Assembly: GCA_027262695.1 (NCBI GenBank)
Contig: GCA_027262695.1_4722.1
Strand: one strand, 5' to 3'
DNA length: 64,000 bases
DNA from: a phage
This document shows positions 7,312 through 23,339 of this stretch, one piece after another; within the stretch, counting starts at the first letter, position 1, and every line of letters begins with the position of its first letter. A program made the position numbers and the translations under genes. The notes under the pieces were generated by a model that was not told where the DNA came from, did no database searches, and worked only from the letters and a program-made list of their open reading frames with translations.

Positions 7312-7686
7312 TTAATGTTCGTTCCAGATGGCATCTTCCGGTGGAACAATAGGATCTTTCTTTGGCATTGATGGCACTTCATGGCGATGCTTACGGAACT
7401 GCCTATCAATAACCTCACGAAGCCGGTACGCATCAACCCAGGTTGACTTGTTGAAGAGTTCCAAGGTTACCGTCAATCGTGTTCTCGTCATCGAATAGCT
7501 TTTCTTTGCAATGAGATCGGGATAATTCAGTTGAGCGAACCATGCACGGATTTGTTCTTCCGTAAACGCGATGCTGTAATAACTGAGTTTACCGTCATTG
7601 AAATCATGCGCATGGGTGTAGCGTCCAGCGTAACGCCAGACAAGATGCACATTCAGATCGATCCATGGTGGGGTGGTATCAGCCAT
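7312..7686 (-). CDS. hypothetical protein
   Basis: 124-aa ORF; hairpin 7263-7294 just past its stop. Confidence 0.5.
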   Translation of the reverse strand: MADTTPPWIDLNVHLVWRYAGRYTHAHDFNDGKLSYYSIAFTEEQIRAWFAQLNYPDLIAKKSYSMTRTRLTVTLELFNKSTWVDAYRLREVIDRQFRKHRHEVPSMPKKDPIVPPEDAIWNEH

Positions 7687-7695
7687 GTGTTACCC

Positions 7696-8265
7696 TCAAC
7701 GATTCTTCATCACTTTACCCAGGCTTTCGATATTATCCCAAAAGCGATTTTTACTTGGCGCATCGCCGACGATAACCGACATCAAATCGCGACGTTCACG
7801 ACTGATGATGCCCTGTGATTTCCAGATCACCATCGTCCAGCAAGCTGCCAGAACGAACAGATGGTTGATGCTTGGTTTGGTTTGCGCAATGAACGCAAGC
7901 CATGCCCAGATACCGGTATATACTAATGTCACTAAAAAGAGAGATATTGTCGCAATGACCACAACGAAGTTTTGGACAGCGGGTTGATTAGCGTTATCCT
8001 GAATAGCGGTAAGATCGGGAAGATTACCTTCAACTGAACTCGTTTCATCAATTTCCAATTCTTCGATTTCTTTTCGTGTGTCAGGAGCTAATCCAGCATC
8101 ATCGAGATGCTTTTTTAACCGCTGTATGCTTAATCGTTGACCGACAGGAATGTTGATGTTGTCGTAACTATTAAGCGCATCGACCAGGGAACGACCGTCC
8201 ACCAACACCAAACTCGCAGTACCCATCGTTTGCGGTTTTATTTTGTAAAGGTCTTTTACTTTCAT
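7696..8265 (-). CDS. hypothetical membrane protein
   Basis: 189-aa ORF with two hydrophobic segments (FVVVIATISLFLVTLVYTGIWAWLAFIA and LFVLAACWTMVIW). Confidence 0.5.
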   Translation of the reverse strand: MKVKDLYKIKPQTMGTASLVLVDGRSLVDALNSYDNINIPVGQRLSIQRLKKHLDDAGLAPDTRKEIEELEIDETSSVEGNLPDLTAIQDNANQPAVQNFVVVIATISLFLVTLVYTGIWAWLAFIAQTKPSINHLFVLAACWTMVIWKSQGIISRERRDLMSVIVGDAPSKNRFWDNIESLGKVMKNR

Positions 8266-8286
8266 GTAGCCACCACCTCCAACGTG

Positions 8287-10899
8287 TTAAGCGTCCGGCG
8301 TAAAATCAAAAGGAATGTCCGTACGAATGATATCATAACGTTTTCCGAGGAAATAAAACTCTTCGGGAACCTGGCCTGGAATGATGCTATCACCGATGAA
8401 CTGCGGATACGCCCAGATGTACTGAGTGAGTCCTTCGAACATATCCAGGTTATTTGCGTGGTTACCCATGATACGTTTCCAGAGTTCGCGTTTATACGGT
8501 GTTTTAACATCGAATCCATAAAGCGGTGCAAGATCTTCACCAGGCACAAATCCCAGGTAGTAATGGATCTGACTGACCGGGAAACCAAGCGTGTCTCGCG
8601 GAATGGTGATCGCTTGCTCAGCTTTGGTGACATGCGTTTCAATAATCCAGTCATAACACTCCGAATAGAACCGATCGAATTTCTCTGGATTATACCACGC
8701 TTTGGGAAGGTTGAGTTTCTCCGTGAACGCATTCGACATGATCGTCGGCAAGAACGGAAGAACGCCGGTTTTGATCTGCGTGTATTTCGATTTTACTCGG
8801 TTAACCAGATTCCAGCAACTGTATCCTAACTGTTCGTTACAAAACTCAACGTAGAGATCGTAGTCGCCACCGGATAACGGGTTGTTAATATCACCGATGT
8901 CTGCGGCATATTTGTCAGGATATTGGTTATTGAAAGCCAGTTTGGTTTGGTAGTCGTAGATACACGGTTTGTTGTTCGCCGTGTTGATCCACCACCAGGG
9001 TTCACCTACTTGTACACAAATGTCCTGGACATGAGGATAGATGATATCAGCAAATGCTGTTAACACATCCCCTAACCACGCCATCGCATATTGGTTACAC
9101 GGAGACAGCAACCAAGACGGCGGCGTGTATCCGGTTGCTGCGATATTCCCTTCCCAATCTTGCTGTGCCCACTCGAACGGACACGCTGTACTCATCAATT
9201 CGTAACTTAAACTGATGGTTACAGAGAAATGGTGTTTTGCAGCGAGTGCGGCGAAAGCTTCATGCCATGCAATACAGGGCGGATTTAATACATCCGTGGT
9301 GTTCACCAGTAGCTTACCCGCACTCGGCGTCCAGACGGTGTCGTAGAAATGCGACATTCCAACATAGTGTACTAATTCATCCTGATATCCCGCATACACC
9401 AGGTTCTCGAACACGCGTTCTGGCGTGATGTTATAATGGTCATCATAAGCGGTTATCGCACGAAGTTCGTGTGGTGCGCAGTGGTGACGATTAACGGTCA
9501 TTTCCTGATACACCCCATCGATAGGAAGAATCTCGATGGTTAAACCGAGGTCGATCGGTGTTTCCAGATAGGTCGTTTCAGTCGCATCTTCCTTATAATG
9601 TCGAGAACTCATGCTGAACATCAACGACGTTACCGATTCAAGTTCGATGGGCTCGTCAGCATAGAACCCCGCCATTGCGTCATTAAAATCGATCGTCACG
9701 GTCGCGCTTGTACCGTCTTCGGAGACGTCGGTCGCATATCGGGTTAATGAGATATACTGACGGCTATCGTCTTTGTGTACGACGGTTAAAACCGGCGGGT
9801 TTTCGGTATCCGCAAAGTTACGCTGATCGCCGGTAAACGTGACCTTTGCTTTAAAGATCAAACCGAGTAACGACGTCATGGGATCATACGCGATACAACC
9901 GTGATCCAGCGTATCCGTTGTCCGCCATTCTACCCCGACCAACCCGTTAGCGGTATGACATCGCATATACGCGTTAAGAACCATGTCTTCACTGACGACC
10001 GCGAAGTTCTCTGTTGATTGACCGTTGATAATCCAATACATCGGTTGCCAAAGATTGCGAGTACCTTTTGCATAGCGGTAGGTTGGTGTACCTTTGGGGT
10101 TGCCATTATTAAGATGAAATACGGCAGTACCTTGATAATGGTCGTTCGTATTAATCGGAACGCTATAAGCATCACCGAGATCCGTACGTTCCACTTTTGT
10201 AATAGCGGCATTCTCAAACAACCCACGTAGCGCTGGTAAACCGATATCTGCAGGTGCGTTTTCACGACGTATCGCATCGGCAATACGATGAGCTAAGGCT
10301 GGGTAAATGACTTCACCTTGTTGCAGGTTCGCAAGCCCCGCAAAGCGATCGGGATCGATACCGGCAATTAACAACTCGATATCACCTTTCGTTCTATCGT
10401 CGTGAAGATATTTCAGTCCGGTAAGGTCGAGATGTTGAATAAGCGATAGCAGGTTGTATTTACGGTTTTCGACGGTTAGTTCGAGATCGCCTGCCCAGAC
10501 CAGACTTTCGTCATCGGCTGTTAAAGTAACGGTTTGTCGACCTGTGGTAGATGTCGTCGTTATCTTATTTAATTGCTCTTGCAGGAAGTCTGTTGCAAGG
10601 TCAAAGGCAACGCCGTAGCGATCGGCGACCGTTTGCATGATTTCACGTAACTGGGTATCTTCTTCAATGATAACCTTGATAGGTATTCCCAAGAAAGCTT
10701 TAGCGAGGTCCCGTTTAACCATCGAGACAAATACGGATTTGTAATATCGGCTTCCATCTTTCCCTTTAAAAAGAATGGAGGTTGTTTCGGGTGACGATAG
10801 AACACGTGCAAATTCAACATCGTCGAAGGTAAGAGAAAGTCCGTTTTTCTCGTTGGTCAATCTTAGTATTTCATTCTGCGCGGTTTCATGTAACTTCAT
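8287..10899 (-). CDS. tail fibre/tailspike protein with conserved N-terminal attachment domain
   Basis: 870-aa ORF; N-terminal ~150 aa shares motif VKRDLAKAFLGIPIK and ADRYGVAFDLATDFL with three other genes in the locus; AGAGG RBS. Confidence 0.65.
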   Translation of the reverse strand: MKLHETAQNEILRLTNEKNGLSLTFDDVEFARVLSSPETTSILFKGKDGSRYYKSVFVSMVKRDLAKAFLGIPIKVIIEEDTQLREIMQTVADRYGVAFDLATDFLQEQLNKITTTSTTGRQTVTLTADDESLVWAGDLELTVENRKYNLLSLIQHLDLTGLKYLHDDRTKGDIELLIAGIDPDRFAGLANLQQGEVIYPALAHRIADAIRRENAPADIGLPALRGLFENAAITKVERTDLGDAYSVPINTNDHYQGTAVFHLNNGNPKGTPTYRYAKGTRNLWQPMYWIINGQSTENFAVVSEDMVLNAYMRCHTANGLVGVEWRTTDTLDHGCIAYDPMTSLLGLIFKAKVTFTGDQRNFADTENPPVLTVVHKDDSRQYISLTRYATDVSEDGTSATVTIDFNDAMAGFYADEPIELESVTSLMFSMSSRHYKEDATETTYLETPIDLGLTIEILPIDGVYQEMTVNRHHCAPHELRAITAYDDHYNITPERVFENLVYAGYQDELVHYVGMSHFYDTVWTPSAGKLLVNTTDVLNPPCIAWHEAFAALAAKHHFSVTISLSYELMSTACPFEWAQQDWEGNIAATGYTPPSWLLSPCNQYAMAWLGDVLTAFADIIYPHVQDICVQVGEPWWWINTANNKPCIYDYQTKLAFNNQYPDKYAADIGDINNPLSGGDYDLYVEFCNEQLGYSCWNLVNRVKSKYTQIKTGVLPFLPTIMSNAFTEKLNLPKAWYNPEKFDRFYSECYDWIIETHVTKAEQAITIPRDTLGFPVSQIHYYLGFVPGEDLAPLYGFDVKTPYKRELWKRIMGNHANNLDMFEGLTQYIWAYPQFIGDSIIPGQVPEEFYFLGKRYDIIRTDIPFDFTPDA

Positions 10900-10921
10900 T
10901 GAAAACCTCTGCCCTTTAGAA

Positions 10922-11563
10922 TTAGATGTACTGCTTACCGCCCACGAAGGACGTTAGCCAGTTCCCGCTGACGAGCTGTGACGCCCAACCTGGAACAGCT
11001 TTACCATTCTGGCTCATGATGTTACCACACCAACCAGGGAATCCGGGACGGATGTAATAGAAAGTTAAATTGTAGAGATGGCAATTCCATACCGCAACGT
11101 TATGTTTACCAGAAACCGCTTTAAAGACAAACGCGACAGGTAAAGGAGACGATAACAATTCGGTCACAGGGACAGCTGACCAGTTCGCATTCGCGTTCCA
11201 TGGTTGCCATGTATGGCTACGCGAGTCGCAATATACGTTACCGTTGTTACCGCGCCCACCCGCATTCCACCACAGCGACGGACTCATGTTCTTAAGTGAG
11301 GTAAATTGCTGCGGTGGAATATTAGGAATAATAACAGGGTTGGTACCTTGCCCATGTTTCTTTTCTTTTGCGTTCACATACCCGCTTATCGATTCGAGGT
11401 ATTTGACACCAGGATAATTATTCTGGACTTGTGTCGCAATATCACGAACATCGAACGTCCAGCAGATCATGGTGTTGTAGTAAGCATCGGTGTTGTCGTA
11501 CCATGCGTTACCATCTTGTAAACGTGCGCCACTATTCGGTGTTTTATCTGTGTTTATAGCCAT
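10922..11563 (-). CDS. hypothetical protein, paralog pair member with conserved C-terminal module
   Basis: 213 aa; C-terminus RPGFPGWCGNIMSQNGKAVPGWASQLVSGNWLTSFVGGKQYI shared with 11573-12340. Confidence 0.55.
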   Translation of the reverse strand: MAINTDKTPNSGARLQDGNAWYDNTDAYYNTMICWTFDVRDIATQVQNNYPGVKYLESISGYVNAKEKKHGQGTNPVIIPNIPPQQFTSLKNMSPSLWWNAGGRGNNGNVYCDSRSHTWQPWNANANWSAVPVTELLSSPLPVAFVFKAVSGKHNVAVWNCHLYNLTFYYIRPGFPGWCGNIMSQNGKAVPGWASQLVSGNWLTSFVGGKQYI

Positions 11564-11572
11564 AGTGTTGTC

Positions 11573-12340
11573 CTATACTGCGATGATTGAGATATCGGAT
11601 GCCGGATGTGTGTTGCCATCAGGTGGTACGTACAGAAACACCCACAGATAAAACAGTAGCTTCTCTAACTTCAATTTAATTGAAGTTAGATATTGTTTAC
11701 CTCCAACAAACGACGTTAACCAATTACCTGAAACAAGTTGCGATGCCCAGCCAGGCACTGCCCTACCGTTCTGGCTCATCACGTTACCTGCCCATCCCGG
11801 AAAACCCGGTCGGAAAATATATACTTGAATATGTGTTAAAGCGTTATCATTACCACCGCCAACAGCAACGTTACGACTCCCAGATGACGGGAAATATTCT
11901 TTTAAGAACAGAGGATCGGTTGCTAATAAAGATGCGGGCCAAGGGTTCGCGGATGCATCAACATCGAATTCGGTCCATCGCCATTTACGTCCCGTGTTGA
12001 ACCATGTCGATGTACCACCACCCCTCACGGCAAGATTGCGCGCATCACGGACATTATAAATTGATTCGATGTTACGCCATCCACCTTTTGCAGCGTTTGC
12101 CGCATAGCAAATCGCATTACCACCATTCTTCTTCTCGTAAACGGTTCGTTTGATATGAACACGGTCGATGAACGCTTCACCGTATTTGTTGACGAGTGTT
12201 TGTGCAATATCACGAAGATCGTGCATGTGAAAAGCGATGTCTTCGTTATGGAACCATGTTGTCTGGTTCCAGACGGTACCGTTTGGTTCGGCACACATCG
12301 ATCGGATATTGTTGCGTTGATTAATCGCGATAAAACCCAT
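11573..12340 (-). CDS. hypothetical protein, paralog of 10922-11563; conserved stop position lost
   Basis: Start set at ATG 12340 (AGGAACGAGG RBS) rather than the ORF-track start that reads through a hairpin; C-terminal 43-aa extension relative to paralog. Confidence 0.5.
   Translation of the reverse strand: MGFIAINQRNNIRSMCAEPNGTVWNQTTWFHNEDIAFHMHDLRDIAQTLVNKYGEAFIDRVHIKRTVYEKKNGGNAICYAANAAKGGWRNIESIYNVRDARNLAVRGGGTSTWFNTGRKWRWTEFDVDASANPWPASLLATDPLFLKEYFPSSGSRNVAVGGGNDNALTHIQVYIFRPGFPGWAGNVMSQNGRAVPGWASQLVSGNWLTSFVGGKQYLTSIKLKLEKLLFYLWVFLYVPPDGNTHPASDISIIAV
11664..11690. repeat. AT-rich perfect palindrome between the two paralog genes
   Basis: tctaacttcaatttaattgaagttaga. Confidence 0.75.
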
Positions 12341-12395
12341 TGTATACCTCGTTCCTATTCTCAAAAAGGAAATTTCATACGATGACGCCATAGCA

Positions 12396-12425
12396 GCTCC
12401 TCCTTCCCTTACGGGTTGGAGGAGC
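12396..12425. promoter_or_regulatory. GC-rich stem-loop, variant of the family
   Basis: gctcctccttcccttacgggttggaggagc between lipoprotein stop and next start. Confidence 0.55.
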
Positions 12426-12433
12426 ATACTTAA

Positions 12434-12940
12434 TTACTTGCTGATAACCTCAACGGAATTGGGATCAGCGATCAATGCGCGGTCGGTAGAACAATTGAAG
12501 AAGACCATGCCGACACCATCGCCGTTCGAGTTCAGGGTTGAACTTGCGTAAGACAGGGTTGGTTTATTCATGCGGTAGAAGCGTTCGCTGGTTGTGGTAT
12601 TGAACCCCAGATCAACGTAGTCTTTCACCGTGGTATACAACTGTGTGGATTCGAAAACGGTTACCGGAGAGTCAACGGTAAATTGACTACCTTCATCCAC
12701 AACCAGAACTTTATCGTTCCAGATTTCAGTGGTTGAAAACTTCGGTTTCCAGTGTTCGAATTCCTGGGTTGCGCCCCAGCAAGAATAAACAGCGAGATTG
12801 CTGTTCTTCTCAACAGGTTTCAACCCCACCAGTTGTGTCAGGTCTTTATCCAGGTTCGGTAAGCCTTCCAGCGTAGCGCACCCACCCAGAGAAAGTACCA
12901 TCAACATACCAAGAACGATCGCGCAGAGTTTTTTCATCAT
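12434..12940 (-). CDS. putative lipoprotein
   Basis: Start at ATG 12940 with AGGAA RBS; N-terminus MMKKLCAIVLGMLMVLSLGGC (signal peptide plus lipobox-like LGGC); immediately downstream of long tail fibre gene. Confidence 0.55.
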   Translation of the reverse strand: MMKKLCAIVLGMLMVLSLGGCATLEGLPNLDKDLTQLVGLKPVEKNSNLAVYSCWGATQEFEHWKPKFSTTEIWNDKVLVVDEGSQFTVDSPVTVFESTQLYTTVKDYVDLGFNTTTSERFYRMNKPTLSYASSTLNSNGDGVGMVFFNCSTDRALIADPNSVEVISK

Positions 12941-12988
12941 TAGATTTCCTTGTGTGTTAACGGAAGTGACTTCCATAAGGATTGATGA

Positions 12989-15900
12989 TTACTTTTTGAG
13001 CGCTTTAAGTTCTTCTTCCAACGCTTCCACTTTTGCCGTAAGCTTCTGTACTTGTTTGATTAATGGAACCACCAAACGTTCGTACATAACACCTTCAGCG
13101 ACGAGTCCGTTAGAAGAAACGATGGCGGGGTCATCTTCTTCGGTTGCATCACGCCAGTGCACGTATTGTGGTGCTATCTCACCAACCTCTTCGGCAATCA
13201 ACCCATACCAACCCCAATCCTTGTTGTCCGCTTCGCAGGTAGAACGATACCAAACAGGACGCATCTCCAATACTTTATCCGCTTGTTCATCCGTGATATT
13301 CTCGATATCTTTCTTATAGCGACGTGACGACGTTGAACGGAACACATTGTTGATCCCAGCAACAGGACTGATATACATATTAGCCCCGCTGGTTGTAGTG
13401 CTAATGTCCCATACCGCAAATCCGCCGTTACTCCCATTTTTTACTACCAACGTATTGGCAATAATGTCCAGGTTATTGTCGTACCCGGTTAACTGGTTTT
13501 CCGTTACATAACTGGATAGGTTAACCGAGTAGTTCTTACTGTTATAACAACGACGCCATCCTGGGCTGTTGGTGCTGCCGTTATAGTTGTCGTAGCTATA
13601 AATGAACTCGGAGTTGGTTTTCGCACCACTGACGGAAGATGTGGTTGCGGTGGTAACACGGATGGTGTAGTTTGTCATCCCGAAGCTAACGACCTCGATA
13701 ACAGCGCCAGCCAGAGGGATGATCCCGCATTTGGTTTCACTGTCTGGGATGTATGCGCTATCGGCAGCAGCGAAGGAGCAACGTGCGACCCAAGCACGAG
13801 TGTTGAAGGCTCCATGGTTTTGCAGTAATGTGATAAACGAGGACGTTGTAATCGAGCTGTTATTATCACCGGTGATCAACCAGCCGGTTGGACATGCAGT
13901 TGCACCAACGTTTTTCGCTGTTAGCGTGATGTTCTGTGATCCGTCGAAGGCTACGCCGCTAATAGTACGCGCAGTCTGTAGCTTCGTCGCCGTTGCTGCG
14001 TTCCCTGACGTGTTCTGGTTCCCTGCTGTGTTAACACCCGGCAGATCGATGTTTGCACTACCATCGAAAGACACCCCACCAATCGTTCTTGCCGTTTGCA
14101 ACTTCGTTGCGGATGCCGCATTCCCTGTGGTGTTTTGGTTGCCTGTTGTATTCACACCCGGGATACTATCCTTAGATGTGTAGATCTGTGCCCATTCCGA
14201 CCAGTTCGCATCGGTTGTATCGCGACGTGAACGTAAATAAGCTGGAGCGTGCGCACCCGAGGTACCCGACCATCCAATGAGGATTTCGCCTTCGCCGACC
14301 GATGAAGCACCTTTAAGATGAACAACGTTACCGTAGGCTGTAGGGTATCCGTTATTGTACGCTTCATACATCTGGATACCCGTGTTGCTGCCCTGGGTCG
14401 CATTAGCTAAAGCGGTGACCCGTCCCTTGGAAGCGAGCGCGTTAATGCTAAAGCTAATATCAGTTGTACCATCAAAGGCGACCCCATTAATCTTCCGTGC
14501 TGTTTGGAGTTTCGTGGCAGTGGCCGCATTACCAGAGGTACTCTGATTACCTGCTTTGTTCACGCCTGGTAAATCAATGTTGGCGGTTCCATCGAAGCTG
14601 ACGCCGCCTATTGTTCTTGCTGTAGCGAGTTTCGTTGCTGTGGTTGCAGCATTACCAACCTTTAACCATTCGCCCCATGGACCATCGATGCCGTTCCATG
14701 ATGCTGTTAAACTACGTACGTAAATATTTCCGGTACGTACAGTGTAACGTTGCGTTCCACCGAACTGTCCAGCTGGGAGCACTTCGATATAACCTACCGC
14801 GTTTGCTTCAGGGAAATTGTGGGCAACATCAGCATTCGTTGATGTTTGTTTAGACCAAATACCTACGGACTCCTCTACCGGACCGTAGGTATCCAGATTT
14901 GCGTCGGTGGGGAGCTGTCCTCGAAAACGTCGGAATAATGATGCTGTTAACCCCAACGTTGTTTGCATTCCTTGAACGCTTGACTGCGATAAAAGCGCCC
15001 GCGCTGTCGACGTAATGGCAGCTAAAGCAACCTTGTCGGCTCCGGTGAAAAATGGGAATTTGTTCGCCGAGGTCGTTAAGCCTGAAAGGGCTGTTAGTAA
15101 TGCGTTAAGGGGTTGTTTTCCGGCTAACGCGTTAGTTATCGTCGTTGCGAAATTAGGATCGTTGCCTAAAGCTTGAGCCAGCTCATTAAGCGTATTTAGC
15201 GCTTCTGGAGACGAGTCAATCAGCGACGCGATAGCACGCATTACAAATTCCGTGTTGGCAATCTGTTGACTGCTATCATTCTCTGCAGCCGTGGGCGCTG
15301 CTGGGATACCGGTGAATACAGGGTTATTAAGATCTGCCTTGAGGGCGATGAGACGTCTAAGCGCTTCAACATCGACTCTCAGGTTTTCCCATCCGACGAG
15401 ATAACCTTCACCGGTTGTGTGATAACGGTTGTACCAAAAATCGCCATTAACACCGAAAAAGAATATTCCCTTCTCTTCGTATTGTGGGTCAGAACCGTTC
15501 CGCGATGAGCTAATGTATTTTATTTCGATAAGGCCGTCTAATACCACTCCTGGGATAATTTTGTCGTTTCCATGCGATTGTGATACCTGGTACACCCCCG
15601 GCGTTGCGGTTCTAATCCACGTTAAGAATTCCGATGTTCCAGCGTTACCGCTAAAATGCTTGACGTCGGTGAGTATCGCACCAAAACCGAACATACCTGG
15701 TAAAGCAACTCGTCCATCGGTACGGTCACGAATATCTGTCGCAACAACGGGCAATTGTTTACGAACGTCATTAACCGCTTTAGGTGTTGCTGATTTTGTC
15801 TCGTCGTCGCTATCAATATCATTGCTCAGGATGGTCAGTCCTCGAGTATCTGTGGTTGCATCAGGAAGAAACGCATTATCCAACACCTTAAGCTGTATTG

Positions 15901-16306
15901 CATCCGTGTTACTAACAGCAACATACACCTGGCAGTTAAGAACGCTGGTTGCGCCTTCGGTGGGCACAGGCTTATATCTTTCTGGTGCGCTGCAGACGGC
16001 GACCAGAACACCTTGATCGTCATACAGACCGATCTCACGTACCCAGAACCCACCTTGACTGGTGGGAATAATGCCTTCAACAATAATCCGGGTTGTGTCG
16101 TCAACATCAATGCGGATGTTGGAAACTTCCCCACGATAAACTTCGTGTATAAGTGCCGTTTGGCTAGCATCGGGGGTTGGTGTAGAGCCGTTACTGTCAC
16201 CAACGGCAAAATGCGTGATTTTTAGTTTCTCACCGTCAGGAAGTAATGCTGCGGTGATACGTTCTGCGCCTTTATCGGTAATAACCGTTTTATATGTTGT
16301 ACTCAT
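12989..16306 (-). CDS. long tail fibre: P2 gpH-like N-terminal domain, tandem fibre repeats, C-terminal S74-type intramolecular chaperone
   Basis: 1105 aa; N-terminus MSTTYKTVITDKGAERITAALLPDGEKLKITHFAVGDSNG matches tail-collar fibre proteins; repeated ATKLQTARTIxGVxFDG units; C-terminus YGLIAEEVGEIAPQYVH with coiled-coil tail typical of the autocleaving chaperone domain. Confidence 0.8.
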   Translation of the reverse strand: MSTTYKTVITDKGAERITAALLPDGEKLKITHFAVGDSNGSTPTPDASQTALIHEVYRGEVSNIRIDVDDTTRIIVEGIIPTSQGGFWVREIGLYDDQGVLVAVCSAPERYKPVPTEGATSVLNCQVYVAVSNTDAIQLKVLDNAFLPDATTDTRGLTILSNDIDSDDETKSATPKAVNDVRKQLPVVATDIRDRTDGRVALPGMFGFGAILTDVKHFSGNAGTSEFLTWIRTATPGVYQVSQSHGNDKIIPGVVLDGLIEIKYISSSRNGSDPQYEEKGIFFFGVNGDFWYNRYHTTGEGYLVGWENLRVDVEALRRLIALKADLNNPVFTGIPAAPTAAENDSSQQIANTEFVMRAIASLIDSSPEALNTLNELAQALGNDPNFATTITNALAGKQPLNALLTALSGLTTSANKFPFFTGADKVALAAITSTARALLSQSSVQGMQTTLGLTASLFRRFRGQLPTDANLDTYGPVEESVGIWSKQTSTNADVAHNFPEANAVGYIEVLPAGQFGGTQRYTVRTGNIYVRSLTASWNGIDGPWGEWLKVGNAATTATKLATARTIGGVSFDGTANIDLPGVNKAGNQSTSGNAATATKLQTARKINGVAFDGTTDISFSINALASKGRVTALANATQGSNTGIQMYEAYNNGYPTAYGNVVHLKGASSVGEGEILIGWSGTSGAHAPAYLRSRRDTTDANWSEWAQIYTSKDSIPGVNTTGNQNTTGNAASATKLQTARTIGGVSFDGSANIDLPGVNTAGNQNTSGNAATATKLQTARTISGVAFDGSQNITLTAKNVGATACPTGWLITGDNNSSITTSSFITLLQNHGAFNTRAWVARCSFAAADSAYIPDSETKCGIIPLAGAVIEVVSFGMTNYTIRVTTATTSSVSGAKTNSEFIYSYDNYNGSTNSPGWRRCYNSKNYSVNLSSYVTENQLTGYDNNLDIIANTLVVKNGSNGGFAVWDISTTTSGANMYISPVAGINNVFRSTSSRRYKKDIENITDEQADKVLEMRPVWYRSTCEADNKDWGWYGLIAEEVGEIAPQYVHWRDATEEDDPAIVSSNGLVAEGVMYERLVVPLIKQVQKLTAKVEALEEELKALKK
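13880..14640 (-). repeat. two blocks of degenerate ~66-bp tandem repeats inside the long fibre gene (phage tail fibre repeat units)
   Basis: Recurrent DNA units such as ccatcgaa(a/g)g(a/c)cac(c/g)ccacc(a/t)at.gt.cttgc and corresponding protein repeats NIDLPGVNxAGNQxTSGNAATATKLQTAR. Confidence 0.6.
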
Positions 16307-16312
16307 GGCGTT

Positions 16313-16840
16313 TTATCCCGGGTAAATAGCGATGACATCACCAATGACAGTTGCCGCACCAGCGTATAAATAAGCTGGAGATGCCTCACGTTGGTTTGTC
16401 ACGGTAAGATCCAATTGTCCACGCCAAACCATGGAGGTATTCGCGATGGGAATCGAGATCTTCTTGGATGTGTCGTCACGAAAATCAATGACAGTAGCAA
16501 GGATAGCTGAATCAAAATCGACATCGGTTTCAAAGATGAATCCGTACTGATCTGAAATAGCTTGTATAACCGCTCTTATAGTTGTTGTTTCAACCGACTC
16601 CAAAACGATTTTTATCGGTATCCCTAGAAACGCTTTCGCGATATCACGTCGTGCGTAAGTGATAAAACTTTCACCACACCACCTTGTTCCTTCATTTGCT
16701 GTGACGATCACTTTTGCCCTGTTAGCACCAGAACTCCCATCCAGGGTTAAAGTGAGATCGGAGTTACTGAACACGCTACCGTTACGTTGGTTTATCAACG
16801 TAATCAGTTCGTCTTTCCACGGCAGGTAAAGTGAACGCAT
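16313..16840 (-). CDS. tail fibre N-terminal attachment-domain protein (putative adaptor)
   Basis: 175 aa from ATG 16840 (GGAGG RBS); contains shared motif YARRDIAKAFLGIPIKIV; stop 6 nt before start of long fibre gene. Confidence 0.55.
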   Translation of the reverse strand: MRSLYLPWKDELITLINQRNGSVFSNSDLTLTLDGSSGANRAKVIVTANEGTRWCGESFITYARRDIAKAFLGIPIKIVLESVETTTIRAVIQAISDQYGFIFETDVDFDSAILATVIDFRDDTSKKISIPIANTSMVWRGQLDLTVTNQREASPAYLYAGAATVIGDVIAIYPG

Positions 16841-16953
16841 AAGCGCACCCTCCTCCAACAATCAAATTAAGATGCAAAACGCCTCGAAACCGGAGTGCGA
16901 TTCGAGGCAAACGTAAACAGTCTTAACGACCGCATAAAATTCCGCGCATATTA

Positions 16954-16965
16954 CCCCCCCCCCCC
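16954..16965. repeat. C12 homopolymer (G12 on coding strand), intergenic
   Basis: Twelve consecutive C between stop of 16997-18751 and start of 16313-16840. Confidence 0.9.
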
Positions 16966-16996
16966 TCGCTTCGTCGAGGTAGGGGAGGATAACACT

Positions 16997-18751
16997 TTAT
17001 GCCGCTACATACCCAGGCCAACGTTCTCTTGGCCAGTTTGTTGCGCCCTGTCCAACGTTGTCCTTACCAGAAGTTACATTACTTACGTCCCAACCACTAA
17101 GATCCTGGTTAAATGCGGTGTTGTTGCGCATCATGAGGTCGATCCTACGTAACGATTGGGTATTCCAGCCGGAAATGTCTTGGTTGAATGCCGCGTTGTA
17201 AGCAAACATGTTAACAACGTCTTGTAATTTTGAAGTGTTCCAGCCGCTTATATCGCTATTGAACTGCATGTTCGAGAACATACTGCTAGCGTTGACAAGA
17301 CTACCTGTTTTCCAGTTAACCAGCTTGTCCCCATCAAGTGCATCGCAGCTACTGAACATGTAACTCATGTCGTTAACTTTGGATACATCCCATTTATCTA
17401 ACCCGTTACCAACGAACTCGTAACAAGCTTGGAACATCCAGCTCATATCGGTAACCTGGCTCACATTCCATTTGCTAAAGTCGAGGTTGAGTTTTGCGCA
17501 TCCGGAGAAGGTTTTATACATACTGGTGATACGACTAACATCCCATTCTTGAATGTTAGGATCATTAAGTATAGATAAGAATTGGAACAATTCGTCTAAC
17601 GACGTCCATTTCTCTGGAATACGGTTTGGTACTGTACGGAGCGATGAAAGGTTATTGGTTGACGGAGAGCGGAACATACCGTTATCCCAATTTACGATTT
17701 CCGTAATGTTGTACCCACGGATCGTTTGGCGTCCATTACCATTATACACAGACCCTGTTGCAGTTATTGTATATTCGTTTGTATCAGCATACGTATGTTC
17801 AGCCTGTGTAGGCCACTCACCTATTACATCCCTATTCCCATCACCCCAATCGATGGAAATATCTGTCCAACCATCAAGATCTAGGGTAACGGTCCCGCCA
17901 TTGGTCTTCAGGACGTATTTACCTGCATTGTCGGTATAATAACAAACAATCATCGCACCGTACAGGTTACCAATTTGCCAATCATCCTTTTGAGTTACCG
18001 CGATATGTGCTGTGCCACGTTGTAGGAAAAGAACCGTACGGTTCTCGTCAGTCTGTAATGCGGTTAGTGCCTGAGTCTTATCATCGTCGGTAATTTCACC
18101 GGCTTCCACTAAAGCACTTAACATTCTTTCGAAGTATTCGATGGGTAATTGGCGTCCTACAGACATATCAACTGATGGAACAGCGAGATCATCCAATGCG
18201 GCGGCAGTTGCAAGCACTAATGATCCATTGGTGGTGCCTGTTTCTTGGAGGTAACGCAGTCCCGTAATCTGGTACGCTTGAATGATTGTAATCAGATCCA
18301 GCGTATCGTTAATGACCTGTACTTGTAAATGTCCAGACCAAACATAGCTGCTTTCAGCAATCGGTAATTCGACCGACTGAATACCCGATGTTTCAAAACT
18401 GATCTTCTTATTAAGATCGGCTTCCAGGAAATCAACCGCGAGGTCGAAATTTATACCGTACTTTTCAGCGATGGAATCTATGATGTTCCTGAAAGCAACA
18501 TCGGTACTTACGATGAATCGTAAAGGGATTCCTGTGAACGCATTAGCAATATCTCGACGAACATACGTAAGTGATTGTTCGAAGAAATAGGGACTGTTAT
18601 CTCCAGGTTTGATGGTTACCTGACACATTTCAGGATGTTCAGATGGGATGAACGATTCAAATTTAACATCGGATTCCTTCAACGAAAGCATGTTCTTCCG
18701 GTTTACCAGCGCCAGAAGATCGGCTTTCCATCCAGGATAAACAGTAGACAT
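16997..18751 (-). CDS. tail fibre protein with C-terminal DUF285-type (WxVSxVTxMxxMF) repeats
   Basis: Start at ATG 18751 (GGAG RBS); N-terminal shared domain (YVRRDIANAFTGIPLRFIV); C-terminal repeats KWNVSQVTDMSWMF, DISGWNTSKLQDVVNMF, DLSGWDVSNVTS. Confidence 0.65.
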   Translation of the reverse strand: MSTVYPGWKADLLALVNRKNMLSLKESDVKFESFIPSEHPEMCQVTIKPGDNSPYFFEQSLTYVRRDIANAFTGIPLRFIVSTDVAFRNIIDSIAEKYGINFDLAVDFLEADLNKKISFETSGIQSVELPIAESSYVWSGHLQVQVINDTLDLITIIQAYQITGLRYLQETGTTNGSLVLATAAALDDLAVPSVDMSVGRQLPIEYFERMLSALVEAGEITDDDKTQALTALQTDENRTVLFLQRGTAHIAVTQKDDWQIGNLYGAMIVCYYTDNAGKYVLKTNGGTVTLDLDGWTDISIDWGDGNRDVIGEWPTQAEHTYADTNEYTITATGSVYNGNGRQTIRGYNITEIVNWDNGMFRSPSTNNLSSLRTVPNRIPEKWTSLDELFQFLSILNDPNIQEWDVSRITSMYKTFSGCAKLNLDFSKWNVSQVTDMSWMFQACYEFVGNGLDKWDVSKVNDMSYMFSSCDALDGDKLVNWKTGSLVNASSMFSNMQFNSDISGWNTSKLQDVVNMFAYNAAFNQDISGWNTQSLRRIDLMMRNNTAFNQDLSGWDVSNVTSGKDNVGQGATNWPRERWPGYVAA

Positions 18752-18789
18752 AAGCACTCCAATCATGGGGCGGTTACCGCCCCCATCAG

Positions 18790-21700
18790 TTAAATTGTCG
18801 GTTTCACGTCGCGTAATAGGGCAATATAATAGCCTAATCCTCGGAGGATCTCCCCACTCCAGAAACCAAAATACATTCCGTCTCTGCCGAGATTAGCACT
18901 ATCTGGTGCAGGACTCCACCCACCATTCATTGCGTCATCAACGGTGTAATGATTGATGTAGTTTTCAGCGATCTCGTTATAAACGTTAACAGCAACAGGA
19001 TAGCCTTTATCGTTGGGATGTCCGTACAACATCGCTAACGACGCACCCGCCAGCCATAATCCTGCCATGTGACCAGTAAAGTCATTCGGGATAAACGCAG
19101 GCGGTTTCTCCATTGGAAAATCCGTTGGTGATTGATAAGCATTTTCCTGCTGGAACGTATATAAGAAATCGATCCAATGACTGATGTAATGGGTTAACTT
19201 CTCAGGGACAGTTAATTTACGATCGATCAATCCCGCGTAAAGCCGTACCGCTGAAAAGAAAGCCCGCGGCTGATAACCAGACCATGCTGTTTGATCGCCG
19301 AAGTGGTACATCGTAAAATCATTGACCTTTGATCCGCTTGGCGCATCCCAACGATCCCACACGTACGCACTCGCACCCGGCCCTAAAACACCGAACTTCT
19401 GATAGTACCATTGCTGTGAGTCATACCAGAAATCCACAACATTCTGAATCATGAGGTCACGACGTTCAGCCGAAACGTCCATATCCAGGAAGACCCACGG
19501 ATGCTGGTAACCCGGATAAGGCTGACCACGCCAGCTGTCGAAAGTCGGTGCATTAGGGATATAGTTGTTCGAGAACGGAATAATACCTGGGGTATAAGGT
19601 AGTGGATCAAGACGTTGGTTAACAATCGTGCAGTCACCAACACGTAATGTTCCTTCCGCTTCAAAGGTTGCTTTCAATGTAAACAGCATGGTATATCCGT
19701 CATCCGTGGCGTAAGTTGATGGTGGATTGTTGATAGCGTAAAGCTTAAACATACCTTCAGCAACACCGCTGTCATCTGGCAAGAACAGAATTTCGGTTGA
19801 ACCATCACCCCATACCGGCGCAGAAGGTTTAGGATCGGTATCAGCATGATTCGGTTGATATCCTGAAAGTGTCCAACCATCAGCAGCGAGCGTTAAGGTA
19901 CTTCGTGCTGTAGTGGTGGGGAGCATCTGCCACCAGCGCCAACCATTTGCATCTTCTACACGGACGTTGTAATCGATCGATGCGAAATAACTGATCTGCC
20001 TTACGATCTGCTTTGCCGTTGGATTGAATTCAAATTGCCCGCCTGCCGCAGTAAGCTGCGCTTTTAAGAACAGCCCATCCCAGGAATCTTCCACAGCTTC
20101 GCTGAACTCCGTGGTGATTGCCACGTCATCCTTCCAGCCGACTTTATCCGCCGATATCAATACAGAACCTGTAACAGCATCACCGGTTGGCGTTGAAGCT
20201 TCATCAACCGCATCAGCAGGAATCAACGCGCCTATTTTGAAATCCCATTCTTTCGGTTCAACGCTGGAAGGTAATACCAGCTTGTACGTTTTGGCTTTCG
20301 CTTCGGTTTTGTCCAAAGAAAGCGATAGTGAGATCTCAACCGGAATTGCAACGCCCGCTGCATCTTTACCTCCGCAGGTTACACGAAGAATTGAATCGCG
20401 ATTGACGCGGAACGGAATGGCCTGCTGTTCAAGGTAAATCTGTGCCGAAGATGCTTGAATCACGATCCAACCGTCAACATCACGTGTGATCGTGAACGGT
20501 GCTTTCGATGGATAGGTATACGTGTAAGCGATACCGTCGGTGTCGTAACGATCGGTTCCTTTTACCTGGCGGAAGAACTTGTCATTCGCATCAATGCGGG
20601 TATATTCCTCAATCGTAAACAAAGATGCCTTATACGCTTTCTGATAGCGCTCCTGCTGCGTTAAACGGTATAAGGTGTAGGCTGCTTCACAAAACCACTG
20701 TTCAGCGTCTGATGCGTTTCCCATGTAGTCTCTGGTGACCGGTACCTGAATTGGTCGGTTATGCTGACACTCATTCGTTTTAATGAGATATCCGCCATAT
20801 TCAACAGGTACACGGGGTGCCCATGCAACCAAATAAGAACCGGTAACGGATTTATCTTTGAGTACGATAGTCCCTACCTCGTCATCCGCACACGCCTCAA
20901 GATCTTCACCGTCCGCTGTTACGTAACGTTTTGTCCGCAACGCCACTTTCTCAATAGGGAATACGGTACCTTTTGTATTCCAGTCAATCGTCCCATTTTC
21001 ATTCGTCTTGAACACATCCGCATTTAGATTTTGCCATCCAAGCTTACCCTCATAGACCTGAACAACAAGATCCATGTATTCCCCGAACGTTGGTGAACCG
21101 TGAGGGATCTTACCGATTCCGTTGGTAAACACAACCGCGGTATCATGGAAACCACCATGTGTTGGGTAATCGTCTTTCGCAAGCGGGTAATGAGCCAACA
21201 CCGGCTGTTTCCCATTAACAATCCAGTTTGCTATCCAACGTGTTGGGGTATCCGGTGGTTCAAGTCCTGCATAGAACGCTTTTACGTACGCGTCGAACGA
21301 TGATTCCGCTAACGTAAGAAAATGGGCTTTAAGCTGGGTATCGTCGGTCGTATGACTGAAAATGCTTGCACCCAGGATTAACAACGATTGTCCTTCCGTT
21401 GTCGCGTCGCCATCCGGTTGTGCTTCCTGACGCGTTGCTGCGATAAAGTGACGGTTATTCACCAACACACCGCTTTCATTCAAGACGTAATGATCGGTTT
21501 CAGGATCGGTAAACGTTCCTGTATTTCGCGTTAAGAAGCGAGCGTGGCCGTAACCAACGAAATTCACCGGAGACGCTGTGATCATCCATTTACCGATAAG
21601 TTGTGCGACGTCCTTATAACGTTCCGACGCCGCGATCTGTTTTACGTACCAGTCTTGTCGATTGAACGTCCAAAGCAGGAAGTAATACGTCTTATTGATC

Positions 21701-22386
21701 TCCATTACCGGAAACGTGGGCGTCAACGGTTCCAACGTTAAATAGTTACTCCAGTCAATCTGACCACCAACAACCGACGGGGTGATTTCAAGCAGTTGGC
21801 ACCATTCGTAACGTTTCGGTTTCGCATCGTAGGTAACTGGCAATGACTGTTTATACGTTCCGACACGGTTCAGGTTGTACTTCTTCCTGGCCGATCCTAA
21901 ATCAACGTAAATGCTAGAACTCGAACTCGCTCCGTATGTACCTAAACCACCCAACGTTGAACGGTACAATGAAATAAACAACGTATCTTCCCAGTAGGGA
22001 TTATCCTCGGTAGGTTCTAACGCAATCTGAGCGGATATCGAGTTCCATGTACCGAGTTGATACGTTGCGTCGAGAGATTCATCCGTGAAGTACGACTCTG
22101 GTAAGCTGAGTTGATACCTTTCGTTAATTAATGCTAACGCGGCACGACCCGTAATATCTTCATTACCAGTTTCTTTCTTTACGATCGCGCCGAATGGAAA
22201 CAACGTTGCAAATGAACGTTTTGGTTTATTTACGGTTACCGTTCCTGTGTAGCTTCCTGTTCCCGTGAGTTGTTGGCCATCAACTGTTGCGGTAACGTTG
22301 ATAGTCGCATCTGGAACGTTCGTTTTGTTGAGCGTGTTTAGTTGCTCGATCAGTTCGCGTTTATCGTCAGGCAGAAATGTTGCCAT
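18790..22386 (-). CDS. large tail fibre/tailspike protein (1198 aa), distal domain of unknown activity
   Basis: Longest ORF in window, within fibre locus; N-terminal region weakly similar in pattern to shared attachment domain. Confidence 0.6.
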   Translation of the reverse strand: MATFLPDDKRELIEQLNTLNKTNVPDATINVTATVDGQQLTGTGSYTGTVTVNKPKRSFATLFPFGAIVKKETGNEDITGRAALALINERYQLSLPESYFTDESLDATYQLGTWNSISAQIALEPTEDNPYWEDTLFISLYRSTLGGLGTYGASSSSSIYVDLGSARKKYNLNRVGTYKQSLPVTYDAKPKRYEWCQLLEITPSVVGGQIDWSNYLTLEPLTPTFPVMEINKTYYFLLWTFNRQDWYVKQIAASERYKDVAQLIGKWMITASPVNFVGYGHARFLTRNTGTFTDPETDHYVLNESGVLVNNRHFIAATRQEAQPDGDATTEGQSLLILGASIFSHTTDDTQLKAHFLTLAESSFDAYVKAFYAGLEPPDTPTRWIANWIVNGKQPVLAHYPLAKDDYPTHGGFHDTAVVFTNGIGKIPHGSPTFGEYMDLVVQVYEGKLGWQNLNADVFKTNENGTIDWNTKGTVFPIEKVALRTKRYVTADGEDLEACADDEVGTIVLKDKSVTGSYLVAWAPRVPVEYGGYLIKTNECQHNRPIQVPVTRDYMGNASDAEQWFCEAAYTLYRLTQQERYQKAYKASLFTIEEYTRIDANDKFFRQVKGTDRYDTDGIAYTYTYPSKAPFTITRDVDGWIVIQASSAQIYLEQQAIPFRVNRDSILRVTCGGKDAAGVAIPVEISLSLSLDKTEAKAKTYKLVLPSSVEPKEWDFKIGALIPADAVDEASTPTGDAVTGSVLISADKVGWKDDVAITTEFSEAVEDSWDGLFLKAQLTAAGGQFEFNPTAKQIVRQISYFASIDYNVRVEDANGWRWWQMLPTTTARSTLTLAADGWTLSGYQPNHADTDPKPSAPVWGDGSTEILFLPDDSGVAEGMFKLYAINNPPSTYATDDGYTMLFTLKATFEAEGTLRVGDCTIVNQRLDPLPYTPGIIPFSNNYIPNAPTFDSWRGQPYPGYQHPWVFLDMDVSAERRDLMIQNVVDFWYDSQQWYYQKFGVLGPGASAYVWDRWDAPSGSKVNDFTMYHFGDQTAWSGYQPRAFFSAVRLYAGLIDRKLTVPEKLTHYISHWIDFLYTFQQENAYQSPTDFPMEKPPAFIPNDFTGHMAGLWLAGASLAMLYGHPNDKGYPVAVNVYNEIAENYINHYTVDDAMNGGWSPAPDSANLGRDGMYFGFWSGEILRGLGYYIALLRDVKPTI

Positions 22387-22398
22387 TTATACACCCCT

Positions 22399-23220
22399 TT
22401 AATCGTAACTAAAATAAAGCTGGCTGCTAATTCCGCTATCTGGATGCGGTTTTAACACGAGTACGGATTCACCAAACGATGGTTTTACGGGTGCTGAGGG
22501 ACCGCTCGTGATACCGTTATAAACGACGGTAGCGTTCGTGACAAGTTCCCACGCAAGGGTATAATCCATAGACGACAATGCCGTTGCTAAACAGTAAGCT
22601 GCACGTCCTGTCGGTGATGTTCCAGCCGCGAGCCGACGTATCGCACCTTGTATAGGCACATCAAGTAATATCCCGTAGGTACTTAACGCGTGAATACCGG
22701 ATTGCGCTTGATCTTCAGGGTAGTACGATGTTAACGGTGTTTTCACCATAAACAACTCGGTGAGGTTATTGCTCTGTGCTTTCTTCGCAACGAATTGGAA
22801 AGTCCCATACCACGATTCTGAGGCGTTGGCACGAACAGCAATTGAAACCGTCTTCTCTTGGGTTTCGAATACGATCGATTGGGTTAACGTATCCTGATCG
22901 AATATTGCTAAATCAATCACTAATCCGTATTTTTGAAACAGCTGGCTTAAACAATCCGCGACGGTGGTTGCGTTAGCGACGATAACATAAGGTTGATGAT
23001 GAATGAACAGTTTACTGATATCGCGTCGTTGGAGATAAATGGAGACAGGATCGTCGGAATAATACAGTGATTGTGGCGCGGGATTAATGGACAAGCGTAT
23101 ACGTCCAGAGTTACCGTACCAGTCAGGCGTTATCGTGATATCCGATAAGGTTAGCGGTTGGTGTATATGTTGATTTAATCTAGAGAGTACATCCTCTTGC
23201 CATGTTCGTTCTGGGTACAT
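22399..23220 (-). CDS. tail fibre-locus protein with shared N-terminal attachment domain
   Basis: Start set at ATG 23220 (GAGG RBS); motif QRRDISKLF and FQKYGLVIDLAIFDQ align with the other fibre N-termini. Confidence 0.5.
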   Translation of the reverse strand: MYPERTWQEDVLSRLNQHIHQPLTLSDITITPDWYGNSGRIRLSINPAPQSLYYSDDPVSIYLQRRDISKLFIHHQPYVIVANATTVADCLSQLFQKYGLVIDLAIFDQDTLTQSIVFETQEKTVSIAVRANASESWYGTFQFVAKKAQSNNLTELFMVKTPLTSYYPEDQAQSGIHALSTYGILLDVPIQGAIRRLAAGTSPTGRAAYCLATALSSMDYTLAWELVTNATVVYNGITSGPSAPVKPSFGESVLVLKPHPDSGISSQLYFSYD

Positions 23221-23307
23221 TTTTTGACCTCGTAACTTATAAATATAACGGAGGACTGAATTCATACCATGGGAGAGGCGAAAAAAAAAAACGAAAAAAT
23301 AGGAAAA

Positions 23308-23339
23308 CGGTGTTCATCCTTTTTAGGGGATGAACACCG
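23308..23339 (-). terminator. rho-independent terminator for leftward transcription
   Basis: 12-bp perfect stem cggtgttcatcc/ggatgaacaccg with 8-nt loop; followed on minus strand by U-rich tract (plus-strand A11 at 23281-23291). Confidence 0.7.

Follow-up and report, generated by a model that had tools for sequence, protein, structure and literature searches.

The 64,000-nucleotide stretch of phage DNA analysed here (NCBI GenBank assembly GCA_027262695.1, contig GCA_027262695.1_4722.1; referred to as the window) contains, between positions 8287 and 23220 of its minus strand, a locus which is probably the gene cluster for host recognition in a Goslar-like chimallivirus, whose products would dock through a common N-terminal domain, chain head-to-tail and display cargo domains. 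Five genes of this locus, named here by the length of their products in amino acids (aa), i.e., the 870-, 175-, 584-, 1198- and 273-aa genes, share a ~150-aa N-terminal domain which was identified as the N-terminal subdomain of the Pfam family DUF7941 (PF25613). Applied to every stop-to-stop open reading frame (ORF) in all six frames of the window, the DUF7941 hidden Markov model (HMM) recovered these five copies only. The window derives from a close relative of Escherichia phage vB_EcoM_Goslar, a nucleus-forming jumbo phage of the Chimalliviridae, with which it shares 85-88% nucleotide identity and is collinear over ~86-145 kb of the 237-kb Goslar genome, and the DUF7941 proteins described here are thus chimallivirus-encoded. 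For the region 8287-23265, nucleotide identity to Goslar was found to be 88% over 69% of the region length. The gene positions of the initial annotation hold, with all genes of the locus on the minus strand; the start codons at 16840, 18751 and 23220 are consistent with the lengths of the respective orthologues (175, 584 and 273-276 aa). Along the direction of transcription the order is 273, 1198, 584, 175, 1105, 180, 284, 213 and 870 aa, the Goslar counterparts being gp93 (273), gp92 (1198), gp91 (175), gp90 (1105, in part), gp88 (180), gp87 (213) and gp86 (870), with the 584- and 284-aa genes having no Goslar counterpart at the locus. Hence four of the five DUF7941 genes possess direct Goslar orthologues in the same order, to which their products are 96% (gp86), 87% (gp91), 91% (gp92) and 60% (gp93) identical.

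A homologous N-terminal domain had initially been claimed for the 870-, 175-, 584- and 273-aa proteins, together with a weaker version in the 1198-aa protein, and comparison of the five N-termini bore this out, similarity being significant for four of them by BLASTP and for the fifth by HMM. In pairwise BLASTP (first 200 aa of each protein, database size set to 1e8) the 870-aa N-terminus matched those of the 584-aa (E 6e-33, 40% identity) and 175-aa proteins (E 3e-20), and the latter two matched each other with E 2e-21; the 273-aa N-terminus, whose identity to the others is low (20-27%), was connected to the 175-aa (E 2e-4) and 584-aa N-termini (E 1e-3), and the 1198-aa N-terminus gave no BLASTP match to the other four. 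The Pfam gathering score for DUF7941 (27 bits) was exceeded by the 870-aa (140 bits, E 1e-40), 584-aa (74 bits, E 2e-20), 175-aa (61 bits, E 1e-16) and 273-aa proteins (44 bits, E 2e-11), with the 1198-aa protein remaining under it (23.7 bits, E 4e-5). For this protein an independent test was carried out, for which a family HMM of 137 sequences was rebuilt with the relatives of the 1198-aa protein removed; this model recovered its N-terminus with 47 bits and E 9e-12 and identifies it as a divergent copy. The motifs given in the initial annotation, (Y/M)x(R/K)RDIAKAF(L/T)GIP(I/L)(K/R) and xxYG(V/I)xFDLAxDF, fit the 175-, 584- and 870-aa proteins approximately, but the 870-aa protein has RDL in place of RDI and the 273-aa protein is far more divergent. 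A word-indexed protein search with the 870-aa N-terminus returned three near-identical proteins only, and no significant PDB match was obtained with a profile restricted to the five N-termini of the window. An exhaustive HMMER census of 1.84 billion representative proteins (E <= 1e-3) revealed a family of 350 clusters, and a family profile of 77 sequences matched one solved chain, 9xqd_0 (PHIKZ127), with E 5.8e-26 over residues 11-290. The low identity of the 273-aa N-terminus and the failure of BLASTP to see that of the 1198-aa protein could be taken to mean that the resemblance results from chance or compositional bias, or is left over from a duplication and serves no common role; given the BLASTP E-values down to 6e-33, four proteins above the gathering score, the independent HMM hit of the fifth, a family spanning 350 clusters and the structural match to 9xqd, this explanation is already refuted and has virtually no probability left.

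The solved homologue places the domain in the baseplate of phage phiKZ. When the AlphaFold2 model of the 273-aa protein was compared with the PDB by Foldseek, its sole significant match was again 9xqd_0, a component of the phiKZ outer peripheral baseplate (E 1.7e-6, probability 1.00, template modelling score 0.54, 148 of 150 residues), and the model thus possesses the gp127-like N-terminal fold. Cadherin and immunoglobulin-like similarities of the same model (E 0.04-0.7, probability <= 0.2) were dismissed as noise. In phiKZ, five gp139 dimers form a band across the outer baseplate platform, and this band ends at gp127, of which one copy is present per star lobe and which directly contacts gp139 (PMC13250141). 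Like the 273-aa protein, the 290-aa gp127 is a complete DUF7941 module; it belongs to the same family and has the same N-terminal fold, but identity is ~21% only, the phiKZ members are without cargo, and the recognised phiKZ fibres belong to the unrelated gp131 family (PMC13250141). The PHROG category 'head and packaging', which is attached to families of the N-terminal domain, was set aside, given that the solved homologue is a baseplate component. The ~150-aa fold would serve proteins of the baseplate periphery as a docking module.

Distal parts are present in three of the five proteins (870, 584 and 1198 aa), and by Pfam, PDB and fold comparison they are mutually unrelated and of host-recognition type, as the initial annotation had proposed; its expectation that every member carries such a part fails for the 175- and 273-aa proteins, and the distal domains of the 870- and 1198-aa proteins, which it had considered unrecognisable, could be assigned. 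The 870-aa protein (8287-10899, minus strand, as for all features below) consists of a complete DUF7941 module (aa 2-277; 10069-10896; Pfam E 1e-40), followed by NCTSP_N (PF23844; aa 285-442; 9574-10047; E 1e-10, 41 bits) and by TIM-barrel_NCTSP (PF23845) of the N4 gp64/gp65 type (aa 476-837; 8389-9474; E 1e-84, 285 bits), the latter two both being above their gathering scores. Among PDB entries it matches N4 gp64 (9lc0_M, E 4e-30) and the N4 non-contractile sheath protein gp65 (9lc0_I, E 9e-8), the gp65 match comprising 63 residues only. NCTSP_N and the TIM barrel are thus common to the 870-aa protein and N4 gp64/gp65 (PDB 9lc0, 9yf4), but here the module is fused behind DUF7941 in a contractile-tailed jumbo phage, where it cannot sheathe a short tail; with this context and the partial gp65 match the 870-aa protein shares a domain with the N4 sheath proteins and is itself no tail sheath. 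Gp65 has long been known as the N4 receptor-binding protein (PMC13434306), and gp64/gp65 are variable host-range proteins of N4-like phages.

In the 584-aa protein (16997-18751) the DUF7941 N-terminal domain (aa 1-~175; 18227-18751; Pfam E 2e-20) is combined with DUF285/BspA-type leucine-rich repeats (LRR; aa ~320-565; 17057-17794), which match PF03382 (DUF285) in two stretches with 152 bits and E 7e-45. Its closest phage match is Goslar gp161 (145152-146576; 44.7% identity, 91% coverage), which is annotated as 'BspA family LRR surface protein' and is located just past the end of the window, and the 584-aa protein is a paralogue of gp161. The 1198-aa protein (18790-22386) carries behind its divergent DUF7941 domain (aa 1-150; 21937-22386) a distal module (aa ~279-1190; 18817-21552) for which fold comparison alone was informative, as neither phmmer nor a 53-sequence profile identified a solved structure in the PDB by sequence and no glycoside hydrolase (GH) family of Pfam was matched at E <= 0.01, hence placing it in no GH family by sequence. 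An AlphaFold2 model based on 53 sequences (predicted local distance difference test, pLDDT, 82.4; predicted template modelling score 0.73) revealed a GH-like (alpha/alpha)6 barrel interrupted by beta-sandwich domains. Relative to (alpha/alpha)6 glycoside hydrolases, of which GH8 (3ren) and BcsZ-like structures (4q2b, 6vc5, 5gy3) were compared, identity is only 8-14% and the barrel is split by large beta-sandwich insertions. E331 (within TTEGQS) and D560 and E562 (within NASDAE) are invariant in the 53 homologues; these stretches may resemble the SEGQ and ASDAD motifs of GH8, and the three residues would be candidates for the catalytic acid and base. Residues 279-1190 fall into phrog_2871 'tail protein' (E 2e-298), matches in BFVD include annotated tail fibres of Klebsiella, Alteromonas and Erwinia phages, and homologues of ~940 aa occur in prophages of E. 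coli, Enterobacter and Salmonella as well as in other phages, in one E. coli prophage inside the structural module, with head genes on one side and the tail-tip gene on the other. Judged by folds and homologues, the cargo of these three proteins would bind or cleave glycans.

The two remaining proteins had initially been counted among the receptor-binding genes, a role which does not fit with their being bare DUF7941 modules without a receptor-binding part. The 273-aa protein (22399-23220) is a complete, cargo-less module and is probably a connector or adaptor: in its AlphaFold2 model residues 1-150 (pLDDT ~80-90) are followed by a disordered linker (residues 151-185, pLDDT ~30 and thus below 50) and a less confidently modelled C-terminal domain (pLDDT 50-60). 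This architecture of N-terminal domain, disordered linker and C-terminal domain is shared by the 870-aa protein, which covers positions 2-275 of the 276 positions of the Pfam profile; the 175-, 584- and 1198-aa proteins possess the N-terminal part of DUF7941 only, like Goslar gp23 and gp91. The 175-aa protein (16313-16840) consists of this N-terminal domain alone and covers profile positions 3-155 of 276. A 273-aa protein with 95% identity to that of the window (P0250) has been deposited as hypothetical protein of Salmonella enterica serovar Panama; it resides on a 180-kb contig, which probably represents a Goslar-like phage genome inside a bacterial assembly.

Within the family as a whole, the domain occupies residues 1-160 in nearly all members, and protein lengths fall into three groups (~160-200, ~257-306 and 320-1537 aa), which reflect, respectively, a lone N-terminal subdomain, an entire DUF7941 module, and a module to which other domains are appended. 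Pfam analysis of 67 long members found DUF285 in 11 and LRR_5 in 2 of them, single cases of a Gp38 adhesin, a ConA-like lectin fold and the N4 TIM barrel, and for the majority of the cargo no Pfam match. Seven proteins (P0129, P0153, P0195, P0173, P0157, P0179 and P0218) contain two or three full N-terminal domains in tandem, repeated with a period of ~170 aa inside one polypeptide; these represent a covalent version of the chain proposed for DUF7941 proteins and lend indirect support to chaining.

Chaining itself was proposed in the sole experimental study of these DUF7941 proteins (Basu et al., April 2026, bioRxiv 10.64898/2026.04.21.720040), which describes ten of them in Goslar, including gp86, gp91, gp92, gp93 and gp161, and reports carbohydrate-binding, glycoside-hydrolase or LRR domains for gp86, gp92 and gp161. 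Head-to-tail DUF7941 dimers were predicted by AlphaFold3, recombinant gp22 formed filaments in negative stain, and an unexplained phiKZ density was found to fit a gp126-gp127 dimer; the authors proposed a 'fiber cloud' of DUF7941 modules chained head-to-tail and anchored at the peripheral baseplate, and not a fixed anchor with exchangeable trimeric fibres of the kind known from multi-fibre phages. Virion association of the Goslar orthologues is demonstrated in that work, with copy numbers estimated by mass spectrometry per virion (Table S4 therein) of ~4.5 for gp86, ~4.9 for gp92, ~4.8 for gp93, ~1.2 for gp91, ~111 for gp161, ~577 for gp22 and ~43 for the fibre gp90, gp22 and gp23 being given as hundreds to thousands of copies. 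The proteins of the window have the same domain, cargo classes and proposed role, i.e., that of baseplate-anchored, head-to-tail host-recognition proteins, and hence family, baseplate link and role are already published for the Goslar orthologues and the finding as such is already known.

Applied to the window, the mechanism would be as follows. The N-terminal domain of one DUF7941 protein would accept the linker and C-terminal domain of another, and the head-to-tail chains thus formed would begin at the baseplate periphery, where the homologous phiKZ gp127 domain sits at the outer end of the gp139 band. Three members would display glycan-binding or glycan-cutting cargo, namely the TIM barrel (870 aa), the BspA/DUF285 repeats (584 aa) and the GH8-like (alpha/alpha)6 barrel (1198 aa), the 273- and 175-aa proteins would serve as cargo-less connectors, and host range would be altered via gain or loss of whole genes. 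Such chains may be long, as in the 'cloud', or short, and low-copy cargo proteins may sit directly on the baseplate. In the model of the initial annotation, each of the five proteins would bind with its N-terminal domain to its own site at the peripheral baseplate, forming six-copy, independent side fibres or spikes with no chaining. This arrangement would agree with phiKZ gp127, which contacts gp139 and is present once per star lobe, with the ~5 copies per virion of Goslar gp86, gp92 and gp93, which are near to six, and with the N-terminal position of the domain in nearly all family members, as is usual for fibre anchors. However, phiKZ models one gp127 site per lobe, yet Goslar has ten DUF7941 paralogues, and the copy numbers of gp161, gp22 and gp23 exceed what six-fold sites can hold; moreover, the predicted head-to-tail dimers, the phiKZ density fitting gp126-gp127 and the tandem N-terminal domains within single polypeptides speak for chaining, and the 175- and 273-aa proteins would be anchors without load. 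Direct anchoring of all five proteins is therefore considered unlikely.

For docking and chaining as the favoured explanation, several points nevertheless have to be set on the other side of the balance. The position of gp127 in phiKZ derives from an AlphaFold model docked into a map of 4.4-4.7 A (PMC13250141). In Goslar, no DUF7941 density was resolved at the peripheral baseplate, and filaments were demonstrated for recombinant gp22 only (bioRxiv 10.64898/2026.04.21.720040). The virion preparation of that study also held PhuZ filaments and phage-nucleus fragments, and the high-copy DUF7941 proteins could therefore co-purify unattached. The ~5 copies of gp86, gp92 and gp93 could occupy chain ends or, equally well, six-fold positions of the baseplate. 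None of the five proteins has a known receptor, and catalysis by the (alpha/alpha)6 domain is unproven because there is no sequence-level match to a GH family or solved structure. The Goslar orthologues are present in purified virions, but direct attachment of the five proteins to the baseplate, as proposed initially, has not been seen. The notion of interchangeable modules on a common baseplate anchor is broadly sustained by the shared domain, the homology to phiKZ gp127, the unrelated distal parts and the gain and loss of whole genes among related phages, but the display now proposed is a chaining of monomers and not a multi-fibre anchor.

Branched multi-tailspike systems, such as those of CBA120 (TSP1-4), G7C (gp63.1/gp66) and Klebsiella phage PhiK64-1, resemble the locus in their adjacent receptor-binding genes with unrelated distal domains and conserved N-terminal attachment modules. 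Anchoring in these systems relies on T4 gp10-like domains or other trimeric adaptors, and the proposed monomer chaining of DUF7941 proteins differs from such trimer branching; no gp10-like or tailspike adaptor domain was found by Pfam in the five proteins or by Foldseek of the 273-aa model against the PDB.

The content of the locus was compared, as the initial annotation had advised, between the window, Goslar and four metagenomic Goslar-like genomes of 209-249 kb (L005, L006, L008 and L009), and whole-gene gain and loss was found for the 584-aa gene and for the pair of the 273- and 1198-aa genes. The pair, the 584-aa gene and the 284-aa gene are all present in the window and in L005; Goslar has the pair and lacks the other two, L006 lacks the pair and has the other two, and L009 has the 584-aa gene, with pair and 284-aa gene absent. 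In L008 the 584-aa gene is present, the 284-aa gene is absent and both genes of the pair are truncated. Orthologues of the 584-aa protein in the four metagenomic genomes reside at the same position and are 72-95% identical; a metagenome scan for this protein gave six loci, and a scan of IMG/VR viral contigs found nothing. In BLASTN against Goslar the 584-aa gene, an additional DUF7941-DUF285 gene between the gp91 and gp92 orthologues, is a clean indel, and the Goslar junction retains its ribosome-binding site GGAGTG together with its last ~11 nucleotides, so that the gene was lost in Goslar. The locus is the variable part of an otherwise conserved backbone, which is usual for host-range determinants. 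With regard to L008 (209 kb; 7382-9962), only 154 aa of the 273-aa gene product and the final 722 aa of the 1198-aa gene product remain encoded, in different frames, which could result from a deletion joining both genes or from an assembly error.

A further copy of such genes was identified in the chromosome of Scandinavium sp. H11S7 (JALIGE010000076.1; L002 9563-15405), where a 5.8-kb island with a GC content of 0.44, flanked by sequence of 0.54, is sited between the cellulose (bcs) and poly-N-acetylglucosamine (pga) operons and has insertion sequence elements at its borders. Within it, one fragment shows homology to the C-terminal half of the 273-aa protein (39% identity), a 1512-aa product is homologous to the 1198-aa protein, and an additional 289-aa protein carries a DUF7941 N-terminal domain (E 5e-7). 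This island is a piece of a chimallivirus host-recognition locus within a bacterial chromosome, and it runs against the statement that DUF7941 is confined to chimalliviruses. Across the relatives the 273- and 1198-aa genes share their fate, being both intact, both missing or both damaged, and they also travel together in the Scandinavium island; their products therefore probably form an adaptor-cargo pair comparable to the gp127-gp126 dimer which Basu et al. propose for phiKZ. A more specific model can be offered tentatively, although it is more doubtful than docking and chaining in general: the cargo-bearing proteins, with about six copies each, would be exchangeable end-pieces of short hetero-chains on cargo-less connectors (for example, the 273-aa adaptor on the baseplate and, attached to it, the 1198-aa hydrolase), giving a monomer-chaining display unlike that of trimeric fibres. 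Adaptor-cargo pairs would then be mobile as units, moving between chimalliviruses and even into bacterial chromosomes, as may have happened with the Scandinavium island.

Some of the above observations would also agree with DUF7941 proteins being virion-associated or merely co-purifying and having no part in host recognition, either as braces of the peripheral baseplate or with the N-terminal domain as a tag which targets exopolysaccharide or cell-wall enzymes during penetration or release. PHROGs labels these proteins as 'virion structural protein' only, a receptor has not been demonstrated, the preparation of Basu et al. held non-virion assemblies, and the (alpha/alpha)6 hydrolase fold also suits matrix degradation with no specific recognition. 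The cargo types, though, are those of known receptor-binding proteins (N4 gp64/gp65, BspA-type LRR, Gp38 adhesin, lectin fold), the DUF7941 genes surround a classical tail-fibre gene, and the locus varies within a conserved backbone as host-range determinants usually do, which renders this explanation quite improbable and leaves host recognition as the favoured role.

Chimalliviruses matter for phage therapy, as their nucleus-like compartment shields them against many host defences, and how they choose their hosts is poorly known. Most genes that are candidates for determining host range in Goslar-type phages lie in this locus, and since close relatives vary by whole genes, natural 'swap' variants exist which are suited to testing the DUF7941 docking model. 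The work confirms the published Goslar account and opens no new ground; an additional paralogue and the gain and loss of genes between relatives are modest additions, and to these come the proposed pairing of the 273- and 1198-aa proteins, the tandem-domain proteins and the fold and family assignments of the cargo.

The remaining genes of the locus carry no copy of the DUF7941 domain. The classical tail-fibre gene (12989-16306, 1105 aa) encodes a fibre with a tail-collar type N-terminus, repeats along the fibre and, at the C-terminus, an S74 chaperone (Pfam: Phage_tail_fib, E 4e-42; Phage_fiber_2; Peptidase_S74, E 3e-8). Its nucleotide similarity to Goslar gp90 is only partial and its distal part differs, the fibre being 1016-1324 aa long in relatives. 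Set against L001 10003-14393, it retains the N-terminal two-thirds of gp90 and ends in the S74 intramolecular chaperone, which replaces the separate tail-fibre assembly protein gp89 of Goslar, whose gene is missing from the window; fibre tip and chaperone system were therefore exchanged together. The adjacent 180-aa protein (12434-12976), 99% identical to Goslar gp88 (phrog_9559, function unknown), has a signal-peptide and lipobox-like N-terminus, read directly as MMKKLCAIVLGMLMVLSLGGC. Gp88 has no known function and is estimated at ~737 copies per Goslar virion (bioRxiv 10.64898/2026.04.21.720040, Table S4); the role of a superinfection-exclusion lipoprotein was dropped in view of this number, and why a lipoprotein-like protein is so abundant in the virion preparation is unexplained. 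Next to it, the 284-aa ORF (11573-12427) is a paralogue of the 213-aa gene (10922-11563; BLASTP E 1e-34, 36% identity) and thus constitutes an extra gp87 paralogue as compared to Goslar; it extends ~34 codons past the end of its 250-aa orthologue in L005. The 213-aa protein is 96% identical to Goslar gp87, and neither Pfam nor PHROG gave a match for it. Over their last ~48 aligned residues both proteins are almost identical (RPGFPGWxGNxMSQNGxAVPGWASQLVSGNWLTSFVGGKQY), pointing to gene conversion or to a C-terminal part used in a common interaction.

Immediately upstream of the 273-aa gene, a consensus scan retained a single strong terminator-like hairpin (23308-23339, 12-bp stem followed by a T run; a pattern match only), which probably marks the upstream boundary of the locus. 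A sigma-70 promoter scan gave 17 sites, fewer than the 28.6 in shuffled sequences, and was not used. Directly downstream of the 870-aa gene lies a gene for a 189-aa protein (7696-8265), 98% identical to Goslar gp85 and with two hydrophobic stretches resembling membrane spans; gp85 was estimated at ~4.6 copies per Goslar virion, near the level of gp86, gp92 and gp93.

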